In this document: piece by piece, positions 6,094 to 36,673 of the stretch
Numbering within the stretch: position 1 is the stretch's first letter
How the letters are laid out: each line of letters starts with the position of its first letter
Origin: Candidatus Aenigmatarchaeota archaeon
Lineage (GTDB): Archaea; Aenigmatarchaeota; Aenigmatarchaeia; QMZP01; QMZT01
DNA length: 64,000 bases
Direction: 5' to 3'
Assembly: GCA_026397315.1 (NCBI GenBank)
Contig: JAPLVC010000005.1
Span: forward strand, 2,088 to 66,087
Notes under the pieces: model-generated
Told to the model about the DNA's origin: nothing
Seen by the model: only the letters and a program-made list of their open reading frames with translations
The model's database searches: none
Program-made: the position numbers and the translations under genes

Positions 6094-6103
6094 TTTTTTT
6101 CCG

Positions 6104-15656: not shown

Positions 15657-16268
15657 TCACTCTGTGTCCTCTTCCTTCTTTTCCTCTGTTATTGACTTCG
15701 CTTTCTCGCCGGCCATGCGCATTGCCGTTTCTTCGTCTACCTTTTCCAAATCGTTTATGGCGTGCATGAGCTCCTGCGATTCCTCATCGACAAGCATCTG
15801 CTGTTTGCCGAAGACCCGTTCCAGCTTTTCCTTTACCTTGTCCAGGCGGCCTTCTTCCAACGCTTCCCTGACGTCGGTATCGGTAAGCACTTCACTCAGC
15901 CTGTCCATGTCCGTGTCAAGAATTTCCTTCGCGATGGATGAAATCTGTTCACTCTTCTCGCGCTGTTTCATGGCCTGGACAAGCAGTATGAGCTGCAGTT
16001 CGCGGAGAAAATGAGACGCTTCAATCTGCTTCGTGCGCGACTCGAGGCTCAATGCCTTGATCTTCTGCACGTTCAGCATCTTGAGCGTGTTGGGCTGCCC
16101 TTTGGATTCGAGCATGAGCTTCTGGATTTTTTCGGCAATGCCCCTGAGGTCGTCAGAAATCCTCTCAATTTCCTTTTCTATTTTGAGGCGTTCCTTGAGC
16201 AAATCGTTGTCTTTTATGGAAAAAATGTCCTTGCCGAATCTCGATTTGATGAATTTCTTGAAATCCAT
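15657..16268 (-). CDS. cdvB: ESCRT-III (Snf7/CdvB)-like coiled-coil protein
   Basis: About 203 aa from the ATG at 16268 (the ORF-track start at 16277 is GTG, and GGTGA lies 6 nt upstream of the ATG). The N-terminal helical hairpin is basic and the C-terminus is acidic (EEKKEEDTE). An MDRLSEVLTDTDVREALEE segment resembles the Snf7 alpha4-5 region. The gene sits 19 nt upstream of vps4. Confidence 0.6.
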   Translation of the reverse strand: MDFKKFIKSRFGKDIFSIKDNDLLKERLKIEKEIERISDDLRGIAEKIQKLMLESKGQPNTLKMLNVQKIKALSLESRTKQIEASHFLRELQLILLVQAMKQREKSEQISSIAKEILDTDMDRLSEVLTDTDVREALEEGRLDKVKEKLERVFGKQQMLVDEESQELMHAINDLEKVDEETAMRMAGEKAKSITEEKKEEDTE

Positions 16269-16313
16269 CGCTCTCACCTTGATATTTATTTTGACTGTCT
16301 TAAATATAAAGGT
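16269..16313. promoter_or_regulatory. 45-bp shared divergent control region with two interdigitated TATA-like boxes
   Basis: The sequence is CGCTCTCACCTTGATATTTATTTTGACTGTCTTAAATATAAAGGT. ATATTTATTTT (16282-16292) lies 22-32 nt upstream of the plus-strand ATG at 16314. TTTATATTTA on the minus strand (16301-16310) lies 32-41 nt upstream of the cdvB ATG. Confidence 0.6.
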
Positions 16314-19300
16314 ATGAAAGGTTTTCTGCTATCGCTCGACGCAATTGTGGCGATAACTTTGTTGCTATCGGTGTCGCTTTTTTTGGCCGGAATTTCGTTC
16401 ACGTATTCGACACCCGAACTGCGCTATCAACGCTATTACTATGCCGGCAAGGACGTCGCCACGCTTTTTCAGGAGGCCAAAATGAGTTCCGTCTCCGGCG
16501 TCGTCAACCTGACCAAATACAACCTCACCCAGGAGGAGATGAACAGGACAATACTTGACGTGATAGGTTCTTTCTGGGCCAGCGGCAACATGAGCGCGGC
16601 CAGTAATCTGACAAGGGACATTTTCAGTGAGGTTTTAGGAAACACTGGTCTCAACTACGAGGTTTCTTTCAACGACGAAACGATATACGCCAGCAACGAC
16701 TCATATTCGGATTTTGTTGCCAGGCTGTCTACAATCGTTTCAGGTTATGAAAAAACGAAGCCCGTCAATGGTTATCTTGCGAAGGTTTATGTCACAAAAG
16801 TCTCGAAAACCAATTCGGAGTTCATATATTTCGGTGGCTACGAGGGAGACGGCAACATAACCAAGATCATCACACTCCCCGTTGACGTGAACGTGACCGG
16901 GGCTTACCTTGAAATGAACGTCGGCAACAATTTCATGCTTTACATCAACGACCAGCCTGCGGGGGCATATTCCAAGAGTGCTGCCAATTTCTCGGCGGAT
17001 AACTGGACCATATGCTCGAAGGCGAATCCAACATACTGTTCATACTTTGCGGCCGGCCAGAACATAATACAGCTGAATTTCACCACGAATCAGAGCACCT
17101 ACATAGGTGGTGGCTATCTCAAGGTCACTTACAAAACTTCCGAGCTTACGGAATACACAACCAGCGACAATGCCAGCGATTACTACGATTTTCCCGGCAT
17201 ACGAGGCATTATCAACCTTTATTCGTCTTTCTACGTGCCGGGCACGCTGAAAAACATAAGCGCCAGGCTGCATTACAACAACAACCTCAGTCTCAACGGC
17301 CAGGGCGTGCCGGTCTATTTTGTTATCGGCTCAAAGGAGATATACAGGAGCAACGCAACTGGCGAACAGGTAATTGAAATCCCGGAGAAAAACATATCCG
17401 ACGCTTTCGGTGGCAAAACAAATCTTACAGACAAACTCAGCAACGCGACCATACCCATACGCTTCGGCACGGACACGTTCGCCTTTACAAGCGGCGAAGG
17501 GACGAGCGATTCAGTTCTTATAACAGACGTGTCAGGCAGCATGGGCGACTCTTGTGATGTCGAAACTTCGTCATGCCTTCACACTGACTGTAACACCGCA
17601 AGCGGTTGCCAGAACTACAGGATAGACGTAGCAAAGGATGTTGACAAAAACTTCGTCTCTATGGTTTTGAATTACACAGGCAACAGACTGGGATTGGTGA
17701 GCTATACAACGTCCACAGAAAGGACGCATTATCTTAGCAACAACAGCGTGTCTCTAAGCACTCAAATAGATAAGTATACGGATATAGATAACACCTGCAT
17801 TTCATGTGGTATAGCCGATGCGACAAGCATGCTTCAGAACAACACAAAAGCTTACAATAGATTAATTACAGAAAAAGCGACGTGGTTGTATAATACGAGT
17901 TTTCCGAATGAAACCCCACCAATAATAAACGGGACTTCATGGAATGAACATAATTACACAGATACGGGATGGGACGAAGGTCAGGCCATACTCGGTTTTG
18001 GTTCAGTGGACACTGATATAGGAAATAACGGAGGTGATTATTATTTCAGAAAACACTTCAACATCAGCAACGTCGATACCATAGAATCGGGTGAATTATA
18101 TGTTCTCTCGGATGATAATGCGGAAATTTATCTTAACGGCCATATCATAGATAACGATACCCAGCAGCACAATGGACAATACTGGAATAGGGGTGAACAA
18201 ATAATTTTTTCTGACAACTTCGAAAACTATTATTCTACCGGCCAGAACAGGCTGTACTCTAACGAAATAAACACGACGCCCGGATATTGGATTGTTAATG
18301 GTACCCCATCGGCCGATAAGGAAGTTTTCATAATGGCCGATGTTTCAATGTATCCGGCAAGTAGCGGAAATGACGTACTTGTTTTTAGGGATATGGACTC
18401 ATATGGTTATGCCGAAAAAAAAATAAATCTCACCGGTGAGGAAAATCTTATGCTCTCATATTGGTGGAGAATGGGACCGAATTCGATTGAAAGTGGCGAA
18501 TATGCGAACGTGCAAATATGGGATGGCAGCTGGAAAACTGCCAGAATGTACAACGGCAGCCAATTTTATGGTCCTGCGCTTAGAGGTGAAATAAATCTTT
18601 CCGGATATAATATGGTCGACAACTTCACGATAAGATTTGGCTTAAGGTCGAGTGATGATGATGAAAGGTTTTACATTGATGATCTTGAAATAAAAAGGGG
18701 AGTGATACTGGTAAACAACTCGTATTTCAAAAATGGAGATAATGTGATAGCGGTAAAGCTGCGCAATGATGACAGTGTGAATGCGGGTTTCGATCTTTCA
18801 CTTAACGTGACATCGAAAAGATACAAGGCAATGCTGGTCATGAGCGACGGGTTGGCAAACGAGTGTTTACCTAGTGGAGCGACTTGTTCCAATTATAACG
18901 CAAGCAACCAAGCAATAATGAAGGCATGCGAAGCGAGAGATAACTTCAGCATAAACGTCTATGCTGTGGGATTCGGCTCAGGTGCAAACATGACTACTTT
19001 AAGCAAAATAGCGTGCTGGAACTGCTCAGCAAACAATTGGATTTCCGGATGCAGCAGGTATTACAACAGCACCAATGCCGATGAGCTTGAAAAAATTTAT
19101 AGGGACATAGCAAGAGACATAGCCAACGCCAGCTATGCCGGCCAGCTCTTCAACTTCACCGGCAATGTGTCCCTGAACAACATTTTATACACGGACTCTT
19201 ACATATATTTCGATTACACGCCAGTTGTCAGGACGCCGGAATACGGGGAGATAACCCTTAATTTCGAATCTCCGCGCCTGAGCGCATCCACAGGCAACAA

Positions 19301-20060
19301 CATGACGACTGACAACGAAACCGGGACCAAGGAAGGCTGGTTCTTCATACCAGGCGATACTGAAGTCTCGACGGAAGTGCTTGATTCAAAAATAACATCA
19401 TACTCATCGTACTACTGGACGGACAGGCTTTGGGTCAACTCGTCCAGCACGCCTAATCAGAACTGGACGCGTGTATACTGGCTCGCAAACTATTCGAGCG
19501 ATTACGAAAAGCTGGGAGACCCATATATCGTGCAGATACCGCCCAACCTTCTTACAGCAAATGGCAACAACTCATTTAAAATAGGCACTGGACTTCGTCC
19601 GACTCCGCTGTCCGGGGGCAAAGGCGCCTCGCCGGACGACAGGATAATTTACACGCTGGGTATAAAAGGCATAAGCCTCACGCAATACAGCGACGTTTTT
19701 GCCAAGGCCAAAGGTTCGACTGTCACTATATATTACGATGCGAACGGCGATAACATCGCGGACAGCTCTGCCGTCGTGGAGGTCGGACCGGAACCAGGTG
19801 ATAATTTCGACCCCATGAACGACTCGATAGACAACGGCTTCATGAAACTCATGGACAGGATGAATTTCATGAGCGATGTTAATTCAGGCGTAGTCGATTT
19901 AAACTACACGACATCAGGGCCAAGCGGAACCGGCGACGGCTCATTCGGCAATCCTGTCGACCTGGAAATAACCGAAGACGTGAATTTCAATTCGGATTTC
20001 ATATCACAAATATCATCCATGTGGGGGCCCGCTATAATGGAGGTAAAAATATGGGGATAA
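16314..20060 (+). CDS. giant pilin-like (class III signal peptide) surface protein with a vWA domain and dense N-glycosylation sequons
   Basis: 1248 aa from the ATG at 16314. The 5' extension to 16011 overlaps cdvB on the opposite strand. The N-terminus MKG/FLLSLDAIVAITLLLSVSLFLAG fits a prepilin-peptidase (K-G then hydrophobic) signal. The vWA MIDAS motif is LITDVSGSMGD, with MLVMSDGLANEC and VYAVGFGSG. A jelly-roll-like block reads GGDYYFRKHFNIS...LSDDNAEIYLNGH. I count about 52 N-X-S/T sequons by eye. Confidence 0.85.
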   Translation: MKGFLLSLDAIVAITLLLSVSLFLAGISFTYSTPELRYQRYYYAGKDVATLFQEAKMSSVSGVVNLTKYNLTQEEMNRTILDVIGSFWASGNMSAASNLTRDIFSEVLGNTGLNYEVSFNDETIYASNDSYSDFVARLSTIVSGYEKTKPVNGYLAKVYVTKVSKTNSEFIYFGGYEGDGNITKIITLPVDVNVTGAYLEMNVGNNFMLYINDQPAGAYSKSAANFSADNWTICSKANPTYCSYFAAGQNIIQLNFTTNQSTYIGGGYLKVTYKTSELTEYTTSDNASDYYDFPGIRGIINLYSSFYVPGTLKNISARLHYNNNLSLNGQGVPVYFVIGSKEIYRSNATGEQVIEIPEKNISDAFGGKTNLTDKLSNATIPIRFGTDTFAFTSGEGTSDSVLITDVSGSMGDSCDVETSSCLHTDCNTASGCQNYRIDVAKDVDKNFVSMVLNYTGNRLGLVSYTTSTERTHYLSNNSVSLSTQIDKYTDIDNTCISCGIADATSMLQNNTKAYNRLITEKATWLYNTSFPNETPPIINGTSWNEHNYTDTGWDEGQAILGFGSVDTDIGNNGGDYYFRKHFNISNVDTIESGELYVLSDDNAEIYLNGHIIDNDTQQHNGQYWNRGEQIIFSDNFENYYSTGQNRLYSNEINTTPGYWIVNGTPSADKEVFIMADVSMYPASSGNDVLVFRDMDSYGYAEKKINLTGEENLMLSYWWRMGPNSIESGEYANVQIWDGSWKTARMYNGSQFYGPALRGEINLSGYNMVDNFTIRFGLRSSDDDERFYIDDLEIKRGVILVNNSYFKNGDNVIAVKLRNDDSVNAGFDLSLNVTSKRYKAMLVMSDGLANECLPSGATCSNYNASNQAIMKACEARDNFSINVYAVGFGSGANMTTLSKIACWNCSANNWISGCSRYYNSTNADELEKIYRDIARDIANASYAGQLFNFTGNVSLNNILYTDSYIYFDYTPVVRTPEYGEITLNFESPRLSASTGNNMTTDNETGTKEGWFFIPGDTEVSTEVLDSKITSYSSYYWTDRLWVNSSSTPNQNWTRVYWLANYSSDYEKLGDPYIVQIPPNLLTANGNNSFKIGTGLRPTPLSGGKGASPDDRIIYTLGIKGISLTQYSDVFAKAKGSTVTIYYDANGDNIADSSAVVEVGPEPGDNFDPMNDSIDNGFMKLMDRMNFMSDVNSGVVDLNYTTSGPSGTGDGSFGNPVDLEITEDVNFNSDFISQISSMWGPAIMEVKIWG

Positions 20061-21178: not shown

Positions 21179-21676
21179 ATGAAAACTCCAATATGCGGTA
21201 TTTGCATGAATTCGGACATGCTCTGCATGGCATGTCAGAAAAAGCTTGATGATGGTAGCATAAGTGAGGCCGACGTTCGTCTGGCCAGGGCAGTCAAGAC
21301 GCTAGCATCCACTTTCAAAGTTCTGGACAACATAACCATAAAAAAAGTCCTGGAAGGCAGTACCATCATTGTAATGCTGTGCTGCAGGGGTGACAGGCCG
21401 AAGTTGGTGGGAAGGGAAGGCGTCGTGATAAACAGACTTTCAAAAATGATGGGAAAAACCGTAAGGGTCATAGAGGAGACAGAAGACATGAAGGAATTCA
21501 TAAAAAATATCATACATCCGGTCCCGTTAGAAGGGATTAACGTAGTTTACAGTACGGACGGGGAAAACCTGAAAGTTATAATCCCGCGCAATAGGAATTT
21601 GCCGATGTCCGAGTTGTCATTCAGAGAAATCATCAAAATGGTTTTTGGCAGGAATGCAGTCGTCGCAAAAGCGTGA
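21179..21676 (+). CDS. Zn-ribbon plus KH-like putative RNA-binding protein (NusA-like KH, tentative)
   Basis: I take the ATG at 21179. It has an N-terminal CGIC...CMAC zinc ribbon and a LVGREGVVINRLSKMMGKTVRVIE segment resembling a KH GxxG-type motif. Confidence 0.45.
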   Translation: MKTPICGICMNSDMLCMACQKKLDDGSISEADVRLARAVKTLASTFKVLDNITIKKVLEGSTIIVMLCCRGDRPKLVGREGVVINRLSKMMGKTVRVIEETEDMKEFIKNIIHPVPLEGINVVYSTDGENLKVIIPRNRNLPMSELSFREIIKMVFGRNAVVAKA

Positions 21677-21686
21677 AGTGATATTC

Positions 21687-23459
21687 ATGGGTAGAAAAAG
21701 AATAGTCGTTTGTGACAGGGAATTATGCAGGTTCGAGAAGTGCGGCTATCGCTGCATAAAATCATGCCCTGTCAACCGTTCCGGCGAAGAATGCATAGTG
21801 AAAGAGGATAGAAACTATCCGATGTTCAATGAAGAACTCTGCATCGGCTGCGGCCTCTGCGCCAAGGCATGCGATAAAGCCGGTTTCAGCGCCATAACTG
21901 TCGTCAACCTTCCGAAAGAGCTTGAAGAGGATCCCATTCACAGATACGGTAAAAATCAGTTCGCTCTTTACCGCCTGCCCATTCCTAAGAAAAACATGGT
22001 CATGGGTCTTATAGGTCCTAACGGCGTGGGTAAGACCACCGTGCTTAACATACTATCAGGGAATCTCAAACCGAACATGGGAATTTTCAAGGGTAAAGTA
22101 GAATGGCAAACCATAATCGAGAAGTTCAAGGGAACGGAGCTGCAAGACTACCTAGAGAAGCTTGCGACCAGCGGAGTGAGTGTAGGTTACAAGCCGCAGC
22201 ATGTCGATTTTATTCCAAAAATGTGGAAAGGCAAAGTGATAGACCTACTCAAGAAGCATGGCGGCTATGAAAAAGTGGCTGAACGGCTTGGCATAGGTGA
22301 AATGTTTGAAAAGGAGATAAAGACGCTTTCCGGCGGAGAGCTGCAGCTTCTCGCCGTGGCCGCTGTGCTTTCAAAGGAATATGATTTTTATTTTTTTGAC
22401 GAGCCTTCGAGTTACCTCGATGTACGACAGCGCTTGACTGTCGCCAGAGAAATACGGGAGCTGGCCAAGAAGCATGAGGTAATGGTAGTGGAGCACGACC
22501 TGGCGATACTCGACTACCTGAGCGACCACGTGCATATACTTTATGGCCAGCCCGGCGCCTTCGGTGTGGTATCCAACCCATACGGGGTACGCGTAGGCAT
22601 AAACACATATCTGGAGGGCTTCATAAATGAGGAGAATGTCCGCTTCCGTGACAAACCCATTCTCTTTTCAAAGACCGCGAGGCCGGCATCCAAGGACCGG
22701 CTTCTTACGGAGTTCACCGGATTCGAAAAGAAATTTGGCCAGTTCGACATAAGAACTGAACCTGGCGAGATTTACAAGGGCGAGGTGATCGGTATTCTGG
22801 GGCCCAACAGCATAGGCAAGACTACATTCATCCGCATGCTCGTGGGTGAACTGGAAGCCGACAAAGGCAAGCCTGTCGAGATGCTGCTATCTTACAAACC
22901 ACAGAGACTAATTTTCGAAGGCGAGGACCTCGATGTGGGGGAATACATAAGGAAAGCCATCGGTGACAAGATTGAGGACGCGGAATACAAGCGGATGCTT
23001 TCTGCGCTGAACATAGAGCGCAACATGGATAAAAAAATGAAAAACCTTTCCGGCGGAGAGCTGCAGGCAGTATTCATAGCGTGCACCCTGGGCAAAGAGC
23101 ACGACATACTGCTGCTCGACGAGCCTTCCGCTTTTCTTGATGTAGAGCAGCGTCTGAGAGTGGCAAAGATAATAAGGTCTCACGTCGAGGGACGCGAGAC
23201 GTCGGCTTTCGTAGTCGACCACGACCTGCAGCTCATCGATTCCGTTGCGGACAGGATTATGGTCTTCGAAGGGGAGCGCGGCGTGAGCGGCCTTGGAAAA
23301 AAGCCGTGCTCGCTGAACGACGGCATGAACCGTTTTCTTAAGACGCTGGACATAACTTTCCGCCGCGACCCGCAGACCGGTCGCGCCCGCGCGAACAAGC
23401 CGGAATCGCAGAAGGATAGGGAGCAGAAGGAAAACAACCAGTATTATTATTCAGGCTGA
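21687..23459 (+). CDS. abce1: ABCE1 / RNase L inhibitor (ribosome recycling ATPase)
   Basis: I take the ATG at 21687. It has an N-terminal double [4Fe-4S] ferredoxin domain (CIKSCP, CIGCGLCAKAC), two ABC cassettes (GPNGVGKTT, GPNSIGKTT) and two LSGGELQ signatures. Confidence 0.95.
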   Translation: MGRKRIVVCDRELCRFEKCGYRCIKSCPVNRSGEECIVKEDRNYPMFNEELCIGCGLCAKACDKAGFSAITVVNLPKELEEDPIHRYGKNQFALYRLPIPKKNMVMGLIGPNGVGKTTVLNILSGNLKPNMGIFKGKVEWQTIIEKFKGTELQDYLEKLATSGVSVGYKPQHVDFIPKMWKGKVIDLLKKHGGYEKVAERLGIGEMFEKEIKTLSGGELQLLAVAAVLSKEYDFYFFDEPSSYLDVRQRLTVAREIRELAKKHEVMVVEHDLAILDYLSDHVHILYGQPGAFGVVSNPYGVRVGINTYLEGFINEENVRFRDKPILFSKTARPASKDRLLTEFTGFEKKFGQFDIRTEPGEIYKGEVIGILGPNSIGKTTFIRMLVGELEADKGKPVEMLLSYKPQRLIFEGEDLDVGEYIRKAIGDKIEDAEYKRMLSALNIERNMDKKMKNLSGGELQAVFIACTLGKEHDILLLDEPSAFLDVEQRLRVAKIIRSHVEGRETSAFVVDHDLQLIDSVADRIMVFEGERGVSGLGKKPCSLNDGMNRFLKTLDITFRRDPQTGRARANKPESQKDREQKENNQYYYSG

Positions 23460-25137: not shown

Positions 25138-25635
25138 TTATTCGACCTCAATCGATCCCATGCTGTAAATTTCCTTGATGACGGCTATGAATTTTTCCGA
25201 CATGGCCTTGCATCTCTCTATCATGGCCTGCCTGACGGTATTGTAGAAAATGTGCCAGTATATCCACCAGAAGAACATGACAAGCTTGTTCCCTTCAAAA
25301 GTGTGCCTGACCACAGGTTCTATCTCCATCTTGAAAGTTCCCTCGTTTTTCGCCTTGCCCTTGAAGCCCACCATCTTTATGCCGACGAGTATTTGGGAGA
25401 ACCTGCCAGTCGTCCTGTTGTGCTTGGCTATGCGCCAGTAATACATCTGTATCGGGTCTCCGCCCCAGTCCCACATCCAGCGCGGCTCGCCTGTTCCGGT
25501 GGTAGTGACCTCGAAAACGGAACGGAGAATCGACGTCCCCTCCCTCGTCCAAGCAAGCGGATCGGGCCCTGCATAATCTATCCATCTGTTCCTGCGCGGA
25601 GCAAAACAATCGTCTTCAACTACGAACTTGCCCAT
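25138..25635 (-). CDS. uncharacterised Trp-rich protein, paralog 1 of the pair
   Basis: 165 aa, alignable by eye to the upstream 172-aa protein: VEDDCF/IQEDCY, IDYAGPDP/INYVGPNP, LRSVFEV/MKAVFRA, WxWG, IxPVxR, and an aromatic-rich C-terminal helix. Its start is 14 nt after the paralog's stop. Confidence 0.65.
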   Translation of the reverse strand: MGKFVVEDDCFAPRRNRWIDYAGPDPLAWTREGTSILRSVFEVTTTGTGEPRWMWDWGGDPIQMYYWRIAKHNRTTGRFSQILVGIKMVGFKGKAKNEGTFKMEIEPVVRHTFEGNKLVMFFWWIYWHIFYNTVRQAMIERCKAMSEKFIAVIKEIYSMGSIEVE

Positions 25636-25649
25636 GGCCCACCCCGGGA

Positions 25650-26168
25650 CTACCCGCTCTCGTCCCTCAGCTGTCTCAAGAACTCGTGAACGTTCCTGTT
25701 GAAAATAGTGACCATGTTTCTGCAGTCTTCCGCATACTCTTCTCTCTTGCGGAAATAGAACGACCTGTGCCAGAAGACGCGGAGCATCTCATAAAACAGG
25801 GAACGCTGCCATATCGTGTCCTGCGGGTATTCGGTCCTCATGACTGGCTTTACCCTGATCTCGGCGTTGCCGGTTTTCTCGTCTCCGTACCCGGAAATGT
25901 CAACCCTTATGAAAACATAGGTGTATGGGTCAATGTCCTTGTGAACATACCATCTTACCTTGAACTTCTCCTTTTCTCCCTTACCCCAGCTGTATTTTTC
26001 TTCCTGTATGTCGGAATCGGCGGCTCTGAAGACCGCCTTCATGAGGTCGTAAACCTTGTAATAAAGCTTCATGGGATTCGGGCCCACGTAATTTATAGTG
26101 ACCCTTTCCGGTCTTTCCCTGTAGCAATCTTCCTGTATCAGCAGCTTCGTTCGCGCAAACTGGGGCAT
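25650..26168 (-). CDS. uncharacterised Trp/Tyr-rich protein, paralog 2 of the pair
   Basis: 172 aa. It is the first gene of the two-gene minus-strand operon, and I recognise no family. See the paralog alignment in the feature above. Confidence 0.65.
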   Translation of the reverse strand: MPQFARTKLLIQEDCYRERPERVTINYVGPNPMKLYYKVYDLMKAVFRAADSDIQEEKYSWGKGEKEKFKVRWYVHKDIDPYTYVFIRVDISGYGDEKTGNAEIRVKPVMRTEYPQDTIWQRSLFYEMLRVFWHRSFYFRKREEYAEDCRNMVTIFNRNVHEFLRQLRDESG

Positions 26169-26243
26169 GACAACACCTTCTTAATTATTTATATTCAAAA
26201 ACGAAATTATAAATTGCTATGGTATGTGCTTGAGGATGTTTTT

Positions 26244-26444
26244 ATGCTCTGGTGGCTTGTTTCAAAAATAATCGCCCTCGTAATGATAGCTGCGGGCGGT
26301 TTCCTGGTGTTCTTTTTTCCAAGCATATCTGCACAGCAGGAGGCAGGCGCTTCCGCTTACCCCCAGACGAATTTCGGCGTGGCTGGCATAGTGATAGGCC
26401 TTGTCCTCATAATAGCAGGCGGTTTCCTGTTATTCAGTCCGTGA
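26244..26444 (+). CDS. small two-TM membrane protein with an internal repeat
   Basis: 66 aa from the ATG at 26244. Two hydrophobic helices each end in a repeated motif (IAAGGFLVFFFP / IIAGGFLLFSP). An A/T-rich promoter-like tract lies upstream (TTAATTATTTATATTC). Confidence 0.45.
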   Translation: MLWWLVSKIIALVMIAAGGFLVFFFPSISAQQEAGASAYPQTNFGVAGIVIGLVLIIAGGFLLFSP

Positions 26445-26488
26445 CACGCTAGTAATACTTTTATCTCTTTCTTCCACAATTAATTATT

Positions 26489-28222
26489 ATGGCTGACACA
26501 GAACTTGAGAAGCCACTCGACCGCATGGCCAAAGAAGAAAAGGCAAGACAAAAAAAGGAGGCGGAAGAGCACAAGAGGGAAGCAAAGGTTAAATGGTGGA
26601 AAAACCAGCTCGAAGAATATGACACAGTCCTGGAATATCTTTTCGCCAAGGCTAGGGAAACCGGCGGCATCTATGGCGATATTGTGATAAGCCCCGCTCT
26701 CATAGACCAGATAGTGACGCTTAATCCGGTCGCGCTTGAAGGCCAGGCGGAAATAATTTTCAATGTTTTCATGTACAGGCTGGCCAAATGGCATTATCTT
26801 TTTGAAAAGGCGGACGAACTGATAAGGGTCACGCCGGTAGCGCCGCCCGCTTTCGCCCCGATGCTGGCGCAGAAAGAGAAGTTGGAAGGCCATATAAAAG
26901 CGGGCCTCGCATCCGCAGCGCAGGCTGTCGCGGACTACGAGCTGTTGAAGCACGACGAAAGGAAATACAGGGAGATTCTAGATTATTTCAAGATGGGGGA
27001 AAAGGACCAGCACGTGCTGCGCGCGCTCTATATTGACAGAGTCGACGCCTACATGGGCGAGGGATATTCGATGGTCACGATGACAAAGCGCTGGCCCACC
27101 ATAATAGGCGACTTCCTGAAAATGCAGGATGAATGGACCGACACGAAGCTCATAAGGGAAAAGCTGAGAGTGACGAACGTCGAGGCGAACGTGCTCAAAA
27201 CAAAGAACGAGCTTTTCAAGGAGTGGAAGAAGCTGTTCTTCCCCGACGTGCGCGAGCGCTACGGCAGGATAAAGAACCTGCTCGATTCGAGGAAGCGCTC
27301 CGTCGACGAATACAGGGAATGGCTCAAGCCGTATTTCAACAAGCTCAAGCTGATACGAGAAGAGTCGGAGTTGAAGGATGCGGCAACAGATTTCACGGAT
27401 CCGCTCAAATTCGGCTTCACGCCGAACGGCGAAGTTAATGCGAAGCTCTGGTTCTGGAAGCCCATCAGGCCGGAAGAGACGGGCAAGCCGCTAATAATAC
27501 AGGGATGGGGCGAGATACCGATATTCGACGACTGGGTGAAGGACATGCTTCCTGCCCTAGAGGCGAAATATGAAGTCAAGTGGACCGAAAAGGAGGTGAA
27601 AAAATTTGTTGCCGAAAAACAGCGTGGCACTCCCAGTTCAAGGACGAGCAAGCGAAAGGAATTGCTGACCATATACCCGGCACAGGACATAGACGAGAGA
27701 TTCCTGTATTATTTTTTCGTGGACTTGGACTACCAGTGTCAGTACAAGAAAGGCTCTACAGGACCAATGGTTATAGAGGACCAGTACTGGCACTTCCATC
27801 CGTTCCTGCTCTCTAAAAACGTCATCCTATTCATGCTGCTAGAGCTTGCAAGCAAAAATAAAAAGCTCAAACTGGAGATAGAGAAAATCATCGGCGTGAA
27901 AAGCATCGAGGACGAATACATAAAGAAAGCGGAGGAGGATTACAGACTGAAAAGCGAACACGTCGAAAAGGATGAAAAGAAGACTCTCGCAAATTGGAAA
28001 GATAACTGGGAAGGCAGCAAAATATCATGGAAAGCCAGGAGGAGAAAGCTCAAAAAGACGCTACAGCCCCTGCTCAAATTTTTCTTCAAGCCGGGCCCGT
28101 ATGAGATAAACGTCGCAGAGAGAGTGTCGAAAACGTATGGCCTATATTTCGGTGCCCAGGTGGAAGAGATGAGGGAACTCATCAAGGAAACTGCTTATAG
28201 AATAAGTGGTCAGAGACCATAG
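26489..28222 (+). CDS. uncharacterised 577-aa mostly helical, Lys/Glu/Trp-rich cytoplasmic protein
   Basis: This long ORF has protein-like composition, with no P-loop, TM segment or signal peptide. Both termini are charged and coiled-coil-like (KEEKARQKKEAEEHKREAK, KKLKLEIEKIIGVKSIEDEYIKKAEEDYRLK). I recognise no family. Confidence 0.75.
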   Translation: MADTELEKPLDRMAKEEKARQKKEAEEHKREAKVKWWKNQLEEYDTVLEYLFAKARETGGIYGDIVISPALIDQIVTLNPVALEGQAEIIFNVFMYRLAKWHYLFEKADELIRVTPVAPPAFAPMLAQKEKLEGHIKAGLASAAQAVADYELLKHDERKYREILDYFKMGEKDQHVLRALYIDRVDAYMGEGYSMVTMTKRWPTIIGDFLKMQDEWTDTKLIREKLRVTNVEANVLKTKNELFKEWKKLFFPDVRERYGRIKNLLDSRKRSVDEYREWLKPYFNKLKLIREESELKDAATDFTDPLKFGFTPNGEVNAKLWFWKPIRPEETGKPLIIQGWGEIPIFDDWVKDMLPALEAKYEVKWTEKEVKKFVAEKQRGTPSSRTSKRKELLTIYPAQDIDERFLYYFFVDLDYQCQYKKGSTGPMVIEDQYWHFHPFLLSKNVILFMLLELASKNKKLKLEIEKIIGVKSIEDEYIKKAEEDYRLKSEHVEKDEKKTLANWKDNWEGSKISWKARRRKLKKTLQPLLKFFFKPGPYEINVAERVSKTYGLYFGAQVEEMRELIKETAYRISGQRP

Positions 28223-28229
28223 GGTATTT

Positions 28230-29996
28230 ATGATCAAGGTCGGAGTCACGACTGGTTTGTATTACATTGCCAGGGCGGAAGAGCTAGCGACGTCGCTGAA
28301 GAAAATAGGTTATGCCCTGTCGAAAGGTGCGAACTCCATCGAGATTTCCGGCGACACTCCGCACGAGATAGATTATACGATAGGTCAGGAGATACGCGAC
28401 CTTGCCTTCAAACAGGGCATCGACCTGTGTTTTCACGGCTCGCTAACCACGCCTTTCGAAATTCCCGAGCGAAGCGATTGGCGTGACGCACAGGAGCACG
28501 TAGAGAAGTCGATACGTTCCGCTGTTTTCTCAGGCTCAAAATACGTCCTGTTCCATGCCTGTCTGCACTTCTGGCTTGAGATGATAACGTTCACGTCATC
28601 GAAGCTCGAGATAGTCATGTGCGACCACGCGGGCCGCATCATATCTGATATATTGAAGGATGATGAACGCCTTAGGAACTGGTTTTCAATTAAAATGTGG
28701 GAATACGAAAGGCAATATCCTCACCTGATTCTTAGAGAAGAGGACCAATATGAAGCGAATCTGAGAGCGGCAGAAGAGCTGCGTCTCTGGGCCGACAAAG
28801 AAACAATAAGAAGAATCAGAGAGGAACGAGAAAAAAATCCGCCAAAAAACGAGCTTGAGGAAAGACTTCTGGAAGCGCGCATGCAAGCAGAAGTGAGCAA
28901 GGAAGGAAGTAAAAAACAGTCCATAAAACAGAAAGAATACCAGACGAAAATGGCAAAAGAAAGGATGGCAAGCGATGACCCCGAAAAAAGGAGATGGAAA
29001 GTCGAAACTTACGGCAAGATGACCGACTGTTATGAAATAATAGCGCATCACATGTTCTACAGAAAAGACCCGATATGGATGGCCATGGCCGACGTTTACA
29101 AGGACGTGCTAGCCACCTATAACCTGGATTATAACGACGACTGGGCATTGGACAAGGCATGGAGAACGGCGCAGGACAGTAACGACCGCCAGTTTAAGGA
29201 GTTCTGGTATGCCACGATGGGCGCGAAGTTCCTCGAAGGCCACATGAAATCAGCTCTGGAATATCTGAACGGGGGGTTGATTAAACATCTGAAACAGTTT
29301 CCTGATGCGGAAAAGCTGATAGACATAGCAAAAAAGCTGAAAATAACGATAGAGATGCCGGACGCCAGAGATCCGAGATACGCCGGACAATACATATTAT
29401 GGCACCCAAAGCAGATTTACGCCGCCATAAAAACCATAAGAAAAACGCTCAACACCGACAGGATTTTCATGACCATCGACTGGGAGCACATAGCCGGCCA
29501 GGGAGTCGACCCGCTGATAGAGATTGACAATCTTAAGCGATTGGCGCCGGACTTCGGCAAATACGTGCTTTCCGTCCATTCCAACGCTCCAAACCCGCTG
29601 CACGCCCATTACCCCATAGAACTTGGCGACACCGAGGTTTACAAACTAAACTATTTTTTGCGTAGCACCGGCTTCGGCAAGCAGCTTGGATACAACGTGT
29701 ATCTCTGGTTCGAGCGCGGCGGCGGCGACGACCCGTTCCGCCAGTCAGTCGATACGCTCAAACTATGCGCCAAATTTCTCGAGCAGGACGTACCTCCGGA
29801 CAAGCTGCCGGAAGAATATTTCGGCATAAAACTGACGGGCATGGACTTCTGGAGGCAGGAAAACATAATGAGAGACCACAGGTTCGAGCCGCTAAAGGAC
29901 CTGCTGGAAATGCCTGAAGAGGAATGGGGCATGCTCTCCTCGGTAGCGATGAGAAAGGGCAAGACAAAGGAATTCAAGAAGGAAGAACTGAAATAA
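28230..29996 (+). CDS. xylose-isomerase-like / Endo IV-like (AP endonuclease 2 family) TIM-barrel protein with a large charged insertion
   Basis: 588 aa from the ATG at 28230, 7 nt after the upstream stop. The blocks follow the metal-ligand order of this fold: CFHGS (His69), VLFHAC (His109), ITIEMPDA, TIDWEHIAGQG, LSVHSNAPN, HAHYPIELGD, LWFERGG. Roughly 230-250 residues of Lys/Glu/Arg-rich helical sequence lie between LFHAC and IEMPDA. Confidence 0.75.
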   Translation: MIKVGVTTGLYYIARAEELATSLKKIGYALSKGANSIEISGDTPHEIDYTIGQEIRDLAFKQGIDLCFHGSLTTPFEIPERSDWRDAQEHVEKSIRSAVFSGSKYVLFHACLHFWLEMITFTSSKLEIVMCDHAGRIISDILKDDERLRNWFSIKMWEYERQYPHLILREEDQYEANLRAAEELRLWADKETIRRIREEREKNPPKNELEERLLEARMQAEVSKEGSKKQSIKQKEYQTKMAKERMASDDPEKRRWKVETYGKMTDCYEIIAHHMFYRKDPIWMAMADVYKDVLATYNLDYNDDWALDKAWRTAQDSNDRQFKEFWYATMGAKFLEGHMKSALEYLNGGLIKHLKQFPDAEKLIDIAKKLKITIEMPDARDPRYAGQYILWHPKQIYAAIKTIRKTLNTDRIFMTIDWEHIAGQGVDPLIEIDNLKRLAPDFGKYVLSVHSNAPNPLHAHYPIELGDTEVYKLNYFLRSTGFGKQLGYNVYLWFERGGGDDPFRQSVDTLKLCAKFLEQDVPPDKLPEEYFGIKLTGMDFWRQENIMRDHRFEPLKDLLEMPEEEWGMLSSVAMRKGKTKEFKKEELK

Positions 29997-30060: not shown

Positions 30061-30846
30061 CTATTCAGCCCACGTGGTGTTGAAGAATGGTTCCACGAAG
30101 CTCTTGATGGCATGCTGGGACTGGGCCCAGAATGCGACATCCTGTGTCTGGTGCACCTTTTTGTCGTCCGTGAGGGCAAATAACACATGTTTGTCGTCGA
30201 TTGTGTAAATCCTGTTAAGAGGTTTGTTAATGTTCTTCATCTCGGCTATTTCCGCGAATGCCTTAACGGGTGCAGTTTCGCCCATGGGTGCAAGAATTCT
30301 GAGCTTCACACCTTTCTTTGAAATGCGCTTGAGAGAATTGTAGTGGTGGGAATAAAGCTCGTTCAGCCCGCTTTCGGTGGTTATGATTCTTATTTCTTTT
30401 GTTGCCTTCTTGAACAGCGAACCAAGGTGCTGGTTTATGGAATGCCTGCCCTTAAGGGTGCCTGTCATCTCGAAAGGCTGTACCAGATTGAGGCCATTCT
30501 TGTATATCGCTTCAAGCTCATTTATCACGGGGGACGTCTTCATGGTTTCCATCCTTTCAACCATTTCTTCGTGTCTCTTCTGCATGTTGTCCATGGTCCT
30601 TTCGAGAGCGTCCTTCGGAGCGAGCGCCACGTATCTTATCGGCTTCGACGGCTGAACAATCACGAATCCTTTCTCGGCCAGCGATTCAAGAATGTCGTAA
30701 GACCTGGATCTCGGAACGTTCGCTATTTGGGAGAGTTCGCCAGCAGTTGCTACGCCTCTTGCTAACAAAGCCACGAAAATTTTCCTCTCGTAGAGGTTCA
30801 GACCGATACTCCTCAACGCATCCAGAGTTTTTGTCGTCGCTACCAT
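30061..30846 (-). CDS. TrmB-family transcriptional regulator
   Basis: 261 aa. It has an N-terminal TrmB wHTH (LGLNLYERKIFVALLARGVATAGELSQIANVPRSRSYDILESLAEKGFV), a coiled-coil linker and a C-terminal effector-like domain. Confidence 0.85.
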   Translation of the reverse strand: MVATTKTLDALRSIGLNLYERKIFVALLARGVATAGELSQIANVPRSRSYDILESLAEKGFVIVQPSKPIRYVALAPKDALERTMDNMQKRHEEMVERMETMKTSPVINELEAIYKNGLNLVQPFEMTGTLKGRHSINQHLGSLFKKATKEIRIITTESGLNELYSHHYNSLKRISKKGVKLRILAPMGETAPVKAFAEIAEMKNINKPLNRIYTIDDKHVLFALTDDKKVHQTQDVAFWAQSQHAIKSFVEPFFNTTWAE

Positions 30847-33140: not shown

Positions 33141-34334
33141 ATGAGAGGCCAGTTTTATTCTGCAATCGCGATACTCATAGCCATACCCATCATCGTGTTC
33201 ATTTCCCTTTATGTAGCCACCCAGGGCGGCGAAGACGGCATCTACCAAGCGATAGTCGCGGACCAGATACACCAGGTGGAAAAAGGCATAGAGGACGATT
33301 TCGGCAAGGCCGTCGTGACTTCGGGAAAACGCGCCATGATAGCCGGCGACGATTACGTGGTCATGAGCGGCAAGGCTTTGACCGATGCCGTGGGGGGTAT
33401 GAAAGAACTGATGCAGTACGGCACGATAGAAGGCAACGAAATCATACTCATGTACAATAATACCATTTCCAACTGGACCAGTAAAATACTGGCCATACCA
33501 TCAAATTTCGACATCAACATAACTTACTGGGGACTCGACGTCGCCAGCTCGGGGGCATTCCACATCAAAGCTTCTGCGAAAATAAACGTTTCTGTTGCAG
33601 ACGAGATCGGCATCGCGCGCATAGACAAAATCGGCGAGTATTATGAAGCGCTTGTTCCGATTGAGGGGACCGAAGATCCTGTGTTCACCCTGAAAACAGG
33701 CGGCCTAATCACTAGAACAATCAAGCTTTCACCTTATTCTTACAGAGCAAAAAAACTGGTGATTGGCGGTCTTAACTCGAGCGGCAACTGTACGGGCAAC
33801 TTCACGATGAACAAAAGTGACTGTTCGTCGAAAATACTGGTTGCGGAAAACACGAGCGGTGTCGCATTATCATGCTTCTCCGGCTTCATAATAGAAGAAT
33901 CTATAAATCTCAGCTCTGATTCGGACTGCTATATCACGGGCAACATCAATGCGGTTGAAATTATAACACAGGCCCTTGCGGAAACGAATTACAATAAAAT
34001 GTACATAGACGGTCCGACAAAGGCGGCATGGCATCTGCCCATACGCGATGAGATAGACGAGAAGTATTATTTCAGCGGCAGTGGCCCATTGTTTTTGAAG
34101 AGATTGGAAGGCAATCTCAACCAGACGACCGAGGGTTTGGAAACTTTCGTGAACCTGCCGGAACTGGAAAGCAACCAGATTCCGCTAAAGCAGAACGTCA
34201 TCTCCGTGGATTATATATATTTTGGGGAACAAGACTATATTGGGTATCCGGTCAGGGGTTTGCAGGGCTGGTTCAGACTTAACAGGACTTTTACGGACAA
34301 ATATAATCTCACCGAATTGTGCAATGGTTGTTGA
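33141..34334 (+). CDS. large pilin-like protein with a class III signal peptide
   Basis: 397 aa. The N-terminus MRGQ/FYSAIAILIAIPIIVFISLYV fits an archaeal prepilin signal. The protein has many N-X-S/T sequons and several Cys pairs (NSSGNCTGNFTMNKSDC, SDSDC, ELCNGC). Confidence 0.65.
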   Translation: MRGQFYSAIAILIAIPIIVFISLYVATQGGEDGIYQAIVADQIHQVEKGIEDDFGKAVVTSGKRAMIAGDDYVVMSGKALTDAVGGMKELMQYGTIEGNEIILMYNNTISNWTSKILAIPSNFDINITYWGLDVASSGAFHIKASAKINVSVADEIGIARIDKIGEYYEALVPIEGTEDPVFTLKTGGLITRTIKLSPYSYRAKKLVIGGLNSSGNCTGNFTMNKSDCSSKILVAENTSGVALSCFSGFIIEESINLSSDSDCYITGNINAVEIITQALAETNYNKMYIDGPTKAAWHLPIRDEIDEKYYFSGSGPLFLKRLEGNLNQTTEGLETFVNLPELESNQIPLKQNVISVDYIYFGEQDYIGYPVRGLQGWFRLNRTFTDKYNLTELCNGC

Positions 34335-34335
34335 T

Positions 34336-35190
34336 ATGAAAAAAGAGAAAGCTGAAGTAACCTCCACGGAAACGAAAGATAAAGATGCAGGTGAAAAAAC
34401 GAAGGGTTCTGGGAAGAACGATATTCTGGAAAAAAAGTGGGAGGTTCTTGTGAAAGAGTCCACAAAGGATTCTAAACAAACCAAAGACGCGGGCACGAAA
34501 GGTGAAGACCGAAAAGGGGATTTGAAGAAAGAGGGGCAAAAACAGGAAAAACCAGCCAAAAGGTTGCCTGTAAAAAAAGAGACGTCTCCTAAAAAAACAA
34601 AGCCAGCAGAAAATGATGAATTGGACGAAGATGAAAAACAAGACACTGTCAAAAAGAAAAAGGGTGAAATAAAGGATCATCTGGAAACCGATGTAGATAA
34701 ACTCTATGAACTCACAAGGGACAAGGGAATAATAAAAATAAATGAAGCTGCAAAACTACTGAAAATAGATATAGATCAGATTGAAGAATGGGGCAGGATA
34801 CTGGAAGAACACAAGCTCGTCAGATTGCGCTATCCACCTGTCGGGGAACCGGTTCTGATACTGAAAAAATTCATGACTGACACCGAAAAAATAAAGGAGA
34901 TAAAAGAGAAAATAAAACTGAAACCGAGGAAGAGGGTGTTCATGATAAACATTATCATACTCGCTTGCTTCATCGTTGCTGTGTCATTCTATACCATAAG
35001 ATTCGGAGCCATACGCATCACTTACACCCAAGCTTATTTAGCGGCGGCCGTAATTATTATAATAGCCGGGGTTTTGATTTTCAAGTTCAAAATAAAGAAA
35101 AGGATAAAAAAAGATGATAAAAAAAATACCGAGGTTTCCTCAGAAGGGGAGCAAGGAGACCGGGGAAAGCCAGCCAGAAAACCGTCCTGA
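34336..35190 (+). CDS. membrane protein with a Lys-rich disordered N-terminus, a winged-helix-like segment and two C-terminal TM helices
   Basis: I take the ATG at 34336, 1 nt after the upstream stop. About 130 aa are K/E/T-rich, followed by DKLYELTRDKGIIKINEAAKLLKIDIDQIEEWGRILEEHKLVRLRYP (wHTH-like) and two TM helices. Confidence 0.6.
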   Translation: MKKEKAEVTSTETKDKDAGEKTKGSGKNDILEKKWEVLVKESTKDSKQTKDAGTKGEDRKGDLKKEGQKQEKPAKRLPVKKETSPKKTKPAENDELDEDEKQDTVKKKKGEIKDHLETDVDKLYELTRDKGIIKINEAAKLLKIDIDQIEEWGRILEEHKLVRLRYPPVGEPVLILKKFMTDTEKIKEIKEKIKLKPRKRVFMINIIILACFIVAVSFYTIRFGAIRITYTQAYLAAAVIIIIAGVLIFKFKIKKRIKKDDKKNTEVSSEGEQGDRGKPARKPS

Positions 35191-36673
35191 GGAAAGAAAA
35201 ATAATAGAGGATTACAGCATAGATTATCAGAATGTATCGGCCTCCGTTAAAATATATCACGACCCGCAGGAGTACGTTCCTATTTATGATCTCAAATACC
35301 CCAAGATAGAGGAAGCTACCTGGGCGATTCTCGACTCCATCAGGGAAAAAATAGTCACCGAGCTCGCTTTCAGGACGGACGACATTCTGAGCACTGAAGA
35401 AACCGGGGACGTCAAGAAAAAATTCGTGCAGAAGGCCACCACCCTTATCCATGCGGAACTACCAAGCCTGTCGAAAAACGACGTCGACATACTTGTCGGC
35501 ATTCTTTCACAGGAATCGCTTGGCCTGGGCCCCATAGAATTCATGCTTAAAGACAATGACCTCGAAGAGATAGTCATAAACAACGCCAAGGAACCTATAT
35601 GGGTTTACCACAGGACTTACGGCTGGCTGAAGTCGAACGTAATACTGAGCGACGAAACCAAAATATACAATTATTCCGCCCAGATAGGCAGGAAGGTCGG
35701 GACCCAGATAACAAATCTCAATCCCCTCATGGACGCTTATCTGACGACAGGCGACAGGGCCAACGCGACACTTTTTCCAATATCATCAAAGGGCAACACG
35801 CTGACGATAAGAAAATTCGCCAGAAGGCCATGGACCATAACGGATTTCATAGAAACGAATACCATAACCCCGGACGTCGCCGCGTTCCTTTGGCTGGCTA
35901 TACAGTTCGAGATGAACATAGTATGCACCGGCGGCACGGCTTCGGGCAAGACGTCTTTCCTCAACGTCCTTTGCATGTTCATCCCGCCGAGCCAGCGAAT
36001 TCTATCCATCGAGGATACGAGAGAAATTCAGCTTCCACCATTCCTTCACTGGGTCCCCATGACTACGAGGCCGCCGAACATCGAAGGCAAAGGCGAGGTC
36101 ACGATGCTTCAACTCATGATAAACGCGTTGAGGATGAGGCCAGACAGGATGATAGTCGGCGAGATACGCAGGTCAAAAGAGGCAGAAGTCCTGTTCGAAG
36201 CTATAAACACAGGCCACTCTGTTTATTCAACACTTCACGCCAACACCAGCGAAGAAACGCTCAAGCGTCTCATCAACCCGCCCATAAACATCCCCATATC
36301 GCTTCTCACGTCGCTCCAGCTGATAGCGGTCATGCACAGGGACAGGCGCAGGAGAATAAGAAGGGTCCTGGAAATAACCGAGCTCATACCTTCCGGCGGG
36401 CTGGACGAAATGAAAATCGAACTGAACAACGTGTTCAGGTGGATACCATCCAAGGATCAGATAGTCGAATGGGGCAAATCGAACCGCGTCCTCAATGACA
36501 TCAAGCTATTTTCCGGGATGGAAGACAATGAAATAAAGAAAAACCTCGAGGAAAAAAAGAGCATCCTCGTGTGGCTGGTGAAAAACAAAGTCAACACGAT
36601 AGACAAAGTCGGCAGGACTATATCCGATTACTACAAGGACCAGGAAAAGATTCTCAGGATGATAAAGAAATAG
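35114..36673 (+). CDS. type IV pilus/archaellum-type secretion ATPase (ArlI/FlaI/PilB-GspE family), copy 1
   Basis: 519 aa. It has Walker A GGTASGKTS, SIEDTREIQL, an Asp/His-box-like IVGEIR and TGHSVYSTLHA. The only ATG start overlaps the upstream gene by 77 nt. Confidence 0.9.
   Translation: MIKKIPRFPQKGSKETGESQPENRPEERKIIEDYSIDYQNVSASVKIYHDPQEYVPIYDLKYPKIEEATWAILDSIREKIVTELAFRTDDILSTEETGDVKKKFVQKATTLIHAELPSLSKNDVDILVGILSQESLGLGPIEFMLKDNDLEEIVINNAKEPIWVYHRTYGWLKSNVILSDETKIYNYSAQIGRKVGTQITNLNPLMDAYLTTGDRANATLFPISSKGNTLTIRKFARRPWTITDFIETNTITPDVAAFLWLAIQFEMNIVCTGGTASGKTSFLNVLCMFIPPSQRILSIEDTREIQLPPFLHWVPMTTRPPNIEGKGEVTMLQLMINALRMRPDRMIVGEIRRSKEAEVLFEAINTGHSVYSTLHANTSEETLKRLINPPINIPISLLTSLQLIAVMHRDRRRRIRRVLEITELIPSGGLDEMKIELNNVFRWIPSKDQIVEWGKSNRVLNDIKLFSGMEDNEIKKNLEEKKSILVWLVKNKVNTIDKVGRTISDYYKDQEKILRMIKK

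Follow-up and report, generated by a model that had tools for sequence, protein, structure and literature searches.

The question raised by the locus described here is what five adjacent genes do together in a 64,000-nucleotide stretch of DNA from a Candidatus Aenigmatarchaeota archaeon (contig JAPLVC010000005.1, positions 2,088 to 66,087 of the forward strand), hereafter the window. Aenigmatarchaeota are uncultured, genome-reduced symbionts of the DPANN group (Diapherotrites, Parvarchaeota, Aenigmarchaeota, Nanoarchaeota plus Nanohaloarchaeota); their cell biology is little known. The module consists of two paralogous genes, A and B, facing a divergent set of three, which encode a membrane mini-protein (C), a long helical protein (D) and an enzyme-like protein with a barrel fold (E). 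A preliminary description of this DNA had called the module uncharacterised, and the open reading frame (ORF) listing agrees with the coordinates, strands and intergenic gaps that it gave for the five genes (Table 1). Its statement that A, B, C and D belong to no assignable family also held, in searches of Pfam, NCBIfam, PADLOC, PHROGs and PDB profiles, in a hidden Markov model (HMM) search and, for D, in a Foldseek structure search. Our results showed that the module is a conserved feature of its phylum and that E has a barrel with a candidate metal site patterned like that of endonuclease IV (Endo IV). The account that we prefer, to which we give a probability of roughly 0.4, is that of a housekeeping complex built around E as a three-metal phosphodiesterase.

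The distribution of the module was determined in one genome per species of the Genome Taxonomy Database (GTDB), with ORFs called in the fetched loci and scored with HMMs for A to E; taxon labels are those given by the submitters of the metagenome-assembled genomes (MAGs). D was present in 85 species-level genomes and E in 112, nearly all of them Aenigmatarchaeota MAGs, and the few homologs of B, D and E with other labels were assigned to other DPANN phyla or lay on short contigs that seem to be misbinned. Large-database searches recovered 246 homologs of B, 271 of D and 244 of E, nearly all from Aenigmatarchaeota MAGs. Two overlapping scans, in which some genomes are counted twice, gave 108 loci that extend far enough on either side of D. 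E lay directly downstream of D in 101 of these and two divergent A/B-family genes lay upstream in 95, with both features present in 91, so that the check for co-occurrence in archaeal and DPANN genomes that had been proposed for the A/B pair and the two large genes returned a strong yes. The gap between D and E was most often 0 nt across loci, and otherwise small or overlapping. The closest relative (locus L002) is about 90% identical, the layout is retained down to 37-40% E identity (L224-L240), and a 519-kb contig from the Joint Genome Institute (JGI) on which D is 38% identical has the same layout. Usually the module occupies one locus per genome. With more than 200 homologs for each family and recurrence in about 100 species-level genomes, the arrangement is far beyond chance, and the module would be a vertically inherited signature of Aenigmatarchaeota, apparently present nowhere else. 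No known pathway was found that would account for the genes, and they are consistently neighbours.

As a separate observation, two A-B-C-D loci, L039 and L078, were seen on CP070801.1, a 1.05-Mb Aenigmatarchaeota chromosome. In L039 no E follows D, and in L078 the D gene reaches a masked stretch of N; the pair reflects either a real duplication or an assembly problem.

Conserved adjacency could also arise if A/B on the one side and C/D/E, or D/E, on the other were two unrelated units that merely sit together through a gene order that has not been scrambled. ABCE1 and other neighbours are often retained too, so local synteny is generally conservative, and there are loci in which D/E stand apart from A/B (L021, L027, L198, L201, L235, L236 and L238) or D stands apart from E (L039 and L046). 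We nevertheless regard this explanation as decidedly unlikely. The genes are still linked at 37-40% protein identity, at which the genes on either side are different ones; they travel together into new orders; and the four families are alike in their narrow phyletic range. In L042 and L049 the order is E- A- B- C+ D+ (signs give the strands), and in one divergent lineage (L221, L223 and L226) it is B- C+ D+ E+ A'+, where A', the second A/B paralog (about 5773-6354 in these loci), sits directly against the end of E on the same strand, at its stop codon. Because the genes stay together after rearrangement and share a narrow phyletic range, they appear to form one functional unit and not residual synteny.

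The same distribution bears on whether the module might be a mobile element, a provirus remnant or an anti-virus defence system. Uncharacterised families accompanied by a nuclease-like enzyme are typical of defence islands. However, PADLOC and PHROG searches gave no matches, and D had no viral structural match in BFVD. The module is near-universal, usually present at a single locus, and kept in a conserved chromosomal context beside housekeeping genes; its base composition (GC content) is the same as that of its surroundings; and B is under very strong purifying selection, as read from the family alignment. Neither a patchy within-species distribution nor flanking integrases or repeats were seen in the loci. 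An origin of this kind is therefore exceedingly improbable.

E offers the most direct clue to function. Its own sequence has no match to PF01261 at E<=1 and no significant match in Pfam, NCBIfam, PADLOC or PHROGs. PF01261 was matched by 55 of 60 full-length E homologs that are 47-90% identical to it (best E 1e-10), and it is also among the precomputed annotations of many E homologs. The AlphaFold model of E (predicted local distance difference test score, pLDDT, 84.4; predicted template modelling score, pTM, 0.82) has eight strands, at residues 2-7, 36-40, 65-69, 105-109, 371-375, 412-417, 446-450 and 490-494. In PDB, Foldseek matched this model only to members of the xylose-isomerase-like superfamily with a probability of 1.0 and target-normalised template modelling (TM) scores of 0.55-0.65, and the best E-value was no lower than 7.5e-4 because the insertion described below is unmatched. 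Further Foldseek matches were to DgpB-C, YcjR, UlaE and the archaeal structure 3WQO, with partial matches to the Endo IV-type apurinic/apyrimidinic (AP) endonuclease of African swine fever virus. By these results E is a member of the AP endonuclease 2 / xylose isomerase-like TIM (triosephosphate isomerase) barrel superfamily. Pfam, AlphaFold and Foldseek thus bear out, at family level, the earlier suggestion of an insertion-bearing Endo IV/xylose-isomerase-like barrel.

The insertion, which had been estimated at 230-250 residues, measures 257 (residues 113-369), is all-helical in the model and lies between strands 4 and 5; its length among E homologs is 235-303 residues. Its flanks are conserved (CDHxGRFISEIL..LRxWF and NDRxFKEF.Y....AKFLEGH), and its centre is a coiled-coil hairpin of variable length (about residues 161-260) with a column identity of 0.28-0.48. 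Conservation within E is highest in the barrel (column identity 0.7-0.8), which is followed by an 85-residue C-terminal extension with helices at 503-587 (column identity 0.65-0.77).

One stretch of the insertion was considered as a possible link to replication. Residues 131-196 or so (28620-28817), comprising the invariant motif CDHxGRFISEIL..LRxWF and the helix after it, gave a weak but repeatable local match of about 66 residues to residues 84-149 of the large subunit of human DNA primase (PriL), in its N-terminal domain, with E=0.023 for the full E profile and 0.0037 for a profile of the insertion only; this weak stretch was all that PDB sequence and profile searches with E returned. Among E homologs, NCBIfam models gave one match of 60 to archaeal PriL (6.8e-4) and two of 60 to Gins23 (0.008), and the archaeal PriL model matched 0 of 29 insertion-only segments. 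A PriL or replication reading of the insertion was rejected, the match being a 66-residue motif that is not significant and was not reproduced on the insertion-only segments. The stretch could be a product of chance, of convergence, or a remnant of shared ancestry.

The candidate metal site of E was identified from invariant columns and from their places in the model. In 60 sequences H69, H109, E375, D417, H420, H450, H458 and E495 were invariant, and H460 was present in at least 90%. AlphaFold places H69 at the end of strand 3, H109 at the end of strand 4, E375 on strand 5, D417 and H420 on strand 6, H450 on strand 7, H458 and H460 in the beta7-alpha7 loop and E495 on strand 8. Each member of the E-D-H-E quartet of the superfamily (E375, D417, H450 and E495) is at the C-terminal end of a predicted strand, and the blocks that the preliminary description had read as an ordered ligand pattern do sit at such ends, on strands 3-8. 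In Chlamydia pneumoniae Endo IV three metals are bound by His75, His115, Glu153, Asp187, His190, His224, Asp237, His239 and Glu269 (PMC13113976). The successive spacings of these ligands are 40, 38, 34, 3, 34, 13, 2 and 30 residues, and those of the candidate ligands of E are 40, 266 (which spans the insertion), 42, 3, 30, 8, 2 and 35. Thus candidate residues for eight of the nine Endo IV ligand types are present in E, in the same order and with nearly the same spacing, with H458 in place of an Asp.

The Endo IV ligand motifs can also be read in the sequence of Escherichia coli Nfo, where the local counterparts in Nfo and E are IDTCH and IDWEH, MHLND and VHSNA, and DRHHSLGEG and HAHYPIELGD. 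When E was trimmed of its insertion and aligned with E. coli Nfo by hhalign, H69 was paired with H69, H109 with H109, DxxH with DxxH and H450 with H216. Arg37, Tyr72 and Leu73 are the residues that we take E. coli Nfo to insert into DNA; E has an invariant L72-T73 after H69 where Nfo has Y72-L73, a correspondence of sequence position and not of superposed structures. The commonest weak NCBIfam match of E homologs was to CbiR (NF041277; 8 of 60, best E 0.019, below the cut-off), a phosphodiesterase of the same superfamily that does not act on DNA, and members of the superfamily bind one to three metals (PMC7733943). The ligand pattern of E appears to be that of the three-metal nuclease branch, with membership of the Endo IV family proper not established, and we infer that E would carry a three-metal site and phosphodiesterase chemistry.

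The protein encoded immediately upstream of E shows a different kind of conservation. The AlphaFold model of D (pLDDT 78.5, pTM 0.71) consists of very long helices (residues 120-186 and 230-287), a few small beta-sheets and further helices, and neither a P-loop nor a transmembrane segment was found in its sequence, as had been claimed for it; none of the five proteins has a P-loop. A conserved core spans residues 141-280, with a column identity of 0.73-0.90, and includes the apex motif DRVDAYxGEGYSMxTMxKRWPT. So high a conservation is not usual in a coiled coil of purely structural role, and it suggests that the core is a specific binding surface. No significant match to D was obtained in Pfam, NCBIfam, PADLOC, PHROGs or PDB sequence and profile searches, and Foldseek gave a best E>0.1 against PDB and 5.8e-3 against BFVD, with poor TM scores. 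The Foldseek matches were generic coiled-coil proteins and SRPBCC/START-like fragments of about 75 columns, and they were not relied upon. Weak neighbours of D by structure or profile were SMC arms, AhlB, EmrA and ESAT-6-like proteins, and D homologs gave sub-threshold profile matches, at D residues of about 141-185, to Wolbachia WD_0736 (27 of 66) and to pore-forming ESAT-6-like proteins (11 of 66). The resemblance to WD_0736 and ESAT-6-like proteins is probably one of hairpin shape only.

Such neighbours invite the view that E is a pseudo-enzyme and that the module is a structural assembly, cytoskeletal or concerned with division or cell contact, anchored by C. Long helical hairpins dominate both D and the insertion of E, the proteins that D weakly resembles are of coiled-coil, pore-forming or hairpin type, and a small membrane protein is encoded in the operon. 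However, the candidate ligands of E are conserved, and its barrel has a column identity of 0.7-0.8 where the coiled-coil hairpin has 0.3-0.5. Since invariant ligands together with a conserved barrel are the pattern of a working active site, we consider a purely structural role very unlikely.

A and B had been called paralogs on the basis of a manual alignment. BLASTP supported this (E=4e-12, with 22% identity across 160 residues), and all of the motifs quoted for the pair are present. B is more conserved than A, with a mean column identity of 63% among its orthologs phylum-wide and more than 50% identity across the homologs recovered. When 1.84 billion representative proteins were searched exhaustively with an HMM profile combining A and B, there were 203 matches at E<=1e-3; those listed were 54-222 residues long, with full-length ones of about 150-220 residues, and no relative fused to another domain was found among the matches. 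A Pfam scan of 128 A/B-family members revealed no recurring family, and neither A nor B had a significant match in Pfam, NCBIfam, PADLOC, PHROGs or PDB sequence and profile searches. Homology of A or B to part of D was ruled out by hhalign.

A pair of cysteines in these proteins (C15 and C149 in B, C10 and C142 in A) was considered as a metal or Fe-S site. This was rejected, as the pair is jointly present or jointly absent in the wider family: of the 128 members, 41 have both and 3 have a single one, and where the pair is absent it is replaced by V, I or L together with G, A or S. Because the two cysteines covary, the N-terminal strand would be expected to pack on the C-terminal helix, which suggests a structural contact or a disulfide and not a universal functional site.

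Of the five proteins, only C reaches a hydrophobicity of membrane grade (Kyte-Doolittle 19-residue maximum 2.81). The two-transmembrane topology and internal AGGFL repeat proposed for it are consistent with its sequence, which has two hydrophobic segments, each with an A(A/I)GGFL motif. Across 25 homologs G18, P26, Q32, G52 and G59 are invariant, and 92 of 156 scanned loci have the common layout A- B- C+ D+ E+, in which a small ORF matching the C profile separates B from D. Searches of Pfam, NCBIfam, PADLOC and PHROGs with C gave no significant match, with sub-threshold ones in Pfam.

Taken together, these features can be arranged into the housekeeping complex that we favour. Two transcription units, B-A and C-D-E, would diverge from a shared A/T-rich promoter region, the spacer between B and C, for which the A/T-richness claimed earlier was confirmed. 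It contains two TATA-like octamers, TTATAAAT on the plus strand (26207-26214) facing C and AATATAAA on the minus strand (26188-26195) facing B, each about 20-30 nt from its respective start codon. Judged by position, it would be a putative bidirectional archaeal promoter giving leaderless or near-leaderless mRNAs. E would be the catalytic subunit, hydrolysing a phosphodiester or 3'-phosphoester bond, an expectation that follows from the strand-end residues that would reproduce the nine-ligand Endo IV site. The substrate would probably be nucleic acid, which is our first choice because the ligand pattern of E is that of Endo IV, and the reaction might be the processing of abasic sites or blocked 3' ends, or the degradation of acquired nucleic acid. 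D and E would form a stable complex, with D as a scaffold or substrate-binding arm, since the two genes show translational coupling and long helical hairpins occur in both proteins. A and B would probably act as a heterodimeric accessory factor, and a membrane tether for the complex may be provided by C. A, B and D have a basic isoelectric point (pI) of about 9, and such values are common in DPANN proteomes. A supplementary listing of PMC8407114 includes base-excision enzymes such as Nth and UDG (uracil-DNA glycosylase) among those of Aenigmarchaeota. A table of that supplement appears to record horizontally transferred genes and not gene presence or absence, ABCE1 being 0 in many genomes, and it was set aside as evidence on whether Aenigmarchaeota lack canonical nfo or xth.

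Several observations weigh against this account. The link to Endo IV is drawn from the order and spacing of motifs, and the ligand that we take to be Asp229 of Endo IV in E. coli numbering is a His in E. None of the hhalign comparisons of E was significant (best E=0.0097, probability 4%); in them Nfo scored 20.4, an Nfo family profile made from an alignment of 80 gamma-proteobacterial sequences scored 26.3, and the E. coli controls YcjR, UlaE and Hyi scored 14.5-15.4. The NCBIfam nfo model (TIGR00587) did not match E itself and matched 1 of 60 homologs, at E=0.053. The E-D-H-E ligands are common to sugar isomerases and equally compatible with isomerase chemistry, and the best full-length Foldseek matches of E were ketose 3-epimerases, ahead of Endo IV. 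The proposed subunit contacts, D with E and A with B, are all drawn from gene order. A, B, D and E have neither a signal peptide nor a transmembrane segment, and the membrane role of C is a guess. Finally, in L019, L021, L027, L039, L046 and L054 either D has no E next to it or D-E have no A/B next to them.

Some of these points would be explained if E were a sugar or sugar-phosphate isomerase or epimerase, and the module worked in the metabolism of carbohydrates or envelope glycans, D being a scaffold and C a membrane anchor close to where glycans are assembled. The leading full-length Foldseek matches were D-psicose, D-tagatose and L-ribulose 3-epimerases, YcjR and 3WQO (TM scores 0.55-0.65), JGI names many E homologs 'sugar phosphate isomerase/epimerase', the E-D-H-E quartet is invariant, and a regulator of the TrmB type, a sugar-responsive family, lies just downstream in this clade. 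Against it, the identity of E to these enzymes is 7-11%, and the hhalign scores of the three E. coli representatives were below that of Nfo. A further five His residues of E are invariant or nearly so and fall at the positions of the extra metals of Endo IV; to our knowledge, the sugar isomerases and epimerases of the superfamily have only the E-D-H-E quartet, and ketose 3-epimerases lack the extra His. In the loci examined, no sugar kinase, transporter or glycosyltransferase is conserved beside the module, and the adjacency of TrmB is confined to one subclade. We consider this reading unlikely. E is probably not a sugar isomerase, and between nucleic acid and carbohydrate we lean, at the level of motifs only, towards a phosphodiester substrate.

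In a supplementary listing of PMC8407114, arCOG04291, 'Sugar isomerase related protein', is given for Aenigmarchaeota; it may be E or a separate, ordinary TIM-barrel protein. In one genome of that listing the neighbours of arCOG04291 are a uracil-DNA glycosylase and an acylphosphatase, and not D.

A bolder form of the phosphodiesterase account would make the module an essential machine found only in Aenigmatarchaeota, in which an Endo IV-type phosphodiesterase, rebuilt with a helical domain that contains a PriL-like motif and with a coiled-coil arm, works with D, A/B and C, whose families would have no relatives elsewhere, in an unprecedented nucleic-acid transaction. This might be repair, end-processing, or the breakdown of host-derived nucleic acid for symbionts that are nucleotide auxotrophs. 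We regard it as somewhat unlikely.

Positions of the module features are collected in Table 1.

Table 1. Genes of the A-E module and parts of protein E, numbered along the window (aa, amino acids)
Feature	Position	Strand	Description	Basis
Gene A	25138-25635	(-)	165 aa, pI 9.1, 5.5% Trp	ORF listing
Gene B	25650-26168	(-)	172 aa	ORF listing
Divergent spacer between B and C	26169-26243		75 bp, 73% A+T	sequence
Gene C	26244-26444	(+)	66 aa, two predicted transmembrane segments	ORF listing, hydrophobicity
Gene D	26489-28222	(+)	577 aa, Lys/Glu-rich	ORF listing, AlphaFold
Gene E	28230-29996	(+)	588 aa	ORF listing
E residues 1-112	28230-28565	(+)	predicted barrel strands 1-4, with H69 and H109	AlphaFold, invariant columns
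E residues 113-369	28566-29336	(+)	predicted all-helical insertion	AlphaFold, conservation profile
E residues 370-502	29337-29735	(+)	predicted barrel strands 5-8	AlphaFold, invariant columns, PF01261, Foldseek
E residues 503-588 and stop codon	29736-29996	(+)	predicted helical C-terminal extension, Lys-rich tail end	AlphaFold

The intergenic gaps are 14 nt between A and B, 44 nt between C and D, and 7 nt between D and E. The start of E was set at the ATG at 28230 rather than at an upstream GTG at 28206, as the alignment of homologs begins at the ATG, with MxxKVGVTTGLYY. No RNA family was found in the module region with Rfam, and no tRNA gene in the whole window with ARAGORN. The flanking genes are of housekeeping type and encode ABCE1, an EamA transporter, a CTP-dependent riboflavin kinase, TrmB and an ATP-dependent DNA ligase. 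TrmB, at 30061-30846 and convergent with E, had already been recognised from the letters, and it matched PF01978 at 2.9e-20. In about half of the loci ABCE1 (21645-23459 in the window) is no more than a few kb away from the module, and it is still adjacent in the rearranged L042 and L049, on the other side (E- A- B- C+ D+ ... ABCE1-); this proximity could reflect synteny alone or point to a functional link. Elsewhere in the window, large ORFs without a Pfam match at E<=1e-5 are found at 16011-20060 (+, 1349 aa), 12771-14495 (-, 574 aa) and 33141-34334 (+, 397 aa). The last of these is located a short distance upstream of a type II/IV secretion-family ATPase (35114-36673), and it may be part of a pilus- or archaellum-like locus.

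Three of the four protein families of the module are invisible to every family or structure library searched (the structure search being that for D), and the fourth has a new architecture for the Endo IV/xylose-isomerase barrel, with a domain-sized insertion and what would be obligate partners. Aenigmatarchaeota are unable to make their own nucleotides, amino acids and lipids (PMC8407114). A 5-kb module that is kept in genomes of about 1 Mb in about a hundred species must presumably serve an indispensable role, and the module is a defined, testable piece of archaeal "dark matter". If E does prove to be an enzyme of AP sites and 3' ends, or a nuclease acting on scavenged nucleic acid, the module would bear on how these symbionts maintain their genomes or feed. 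The five genes together also provide a convenient genomic marker for the phylum.

Our literature search found no description of the five-gene module, and its parts are best compared with systems that are known. With Endo IV (Nfo/Apn1), E shares a (beta/alpha)8 barrel, the order and strand positions of the ligands and nearly their spacing, and the motifs FH(G/D)S, (L/N)FH, IE, IDxxH, (V/M)H(S/L)N and HxH..LG(D/E). Endo IV, however, is a compact single domain of about 280-300 residues, whereas E, at 588, is twice as long, having the 257-residue insertion in place of helix 4 and the 85-residue C-terminal extension. E is also encoded with four partner proteins, D always among them in the loci scanned, and we know of no partners that Endo IV needs. 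The ketose 3-epimerases (D-psicose and D-tagatose), YcjR, UlaE and the Methanocaldococcus jannaschii protein 3WQO are the best global structural matches and share the E-D-H-E ligands at strands 5-8, but they have neither insertion nor extension, are single-metal enzymes encoded in sugar operons, and are 7-11% identical to E. As far as we know, these enzymes lack the HxH loop as well as a His where strands 3 and 4 end. CbiR belongs to the same barrel superfamily and cleaves phosphodiesters outside DNA, but it lacks the insertion, and its matches to E homologs are far below the cut-off; no cobamide genes were found in the window or in related loci. Finally, the module resembles Mre11-Rad50 and SbcCD in organisation only, in that the gene for a metal phosphoesterase would stand beside that for a long coiled-coil protein with a conserved apex, to which the enzyme would presumably bind. 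There is no homology between them; D has neither an ATPase head nor a zinc hook, and E is a predicted TIM barrel and not a calcineurin-like phosphoesterase. Altogether, as judged from sequence, the module as a system appears to fall into no known category, and E would be a new architectural variant of a known superfamily.

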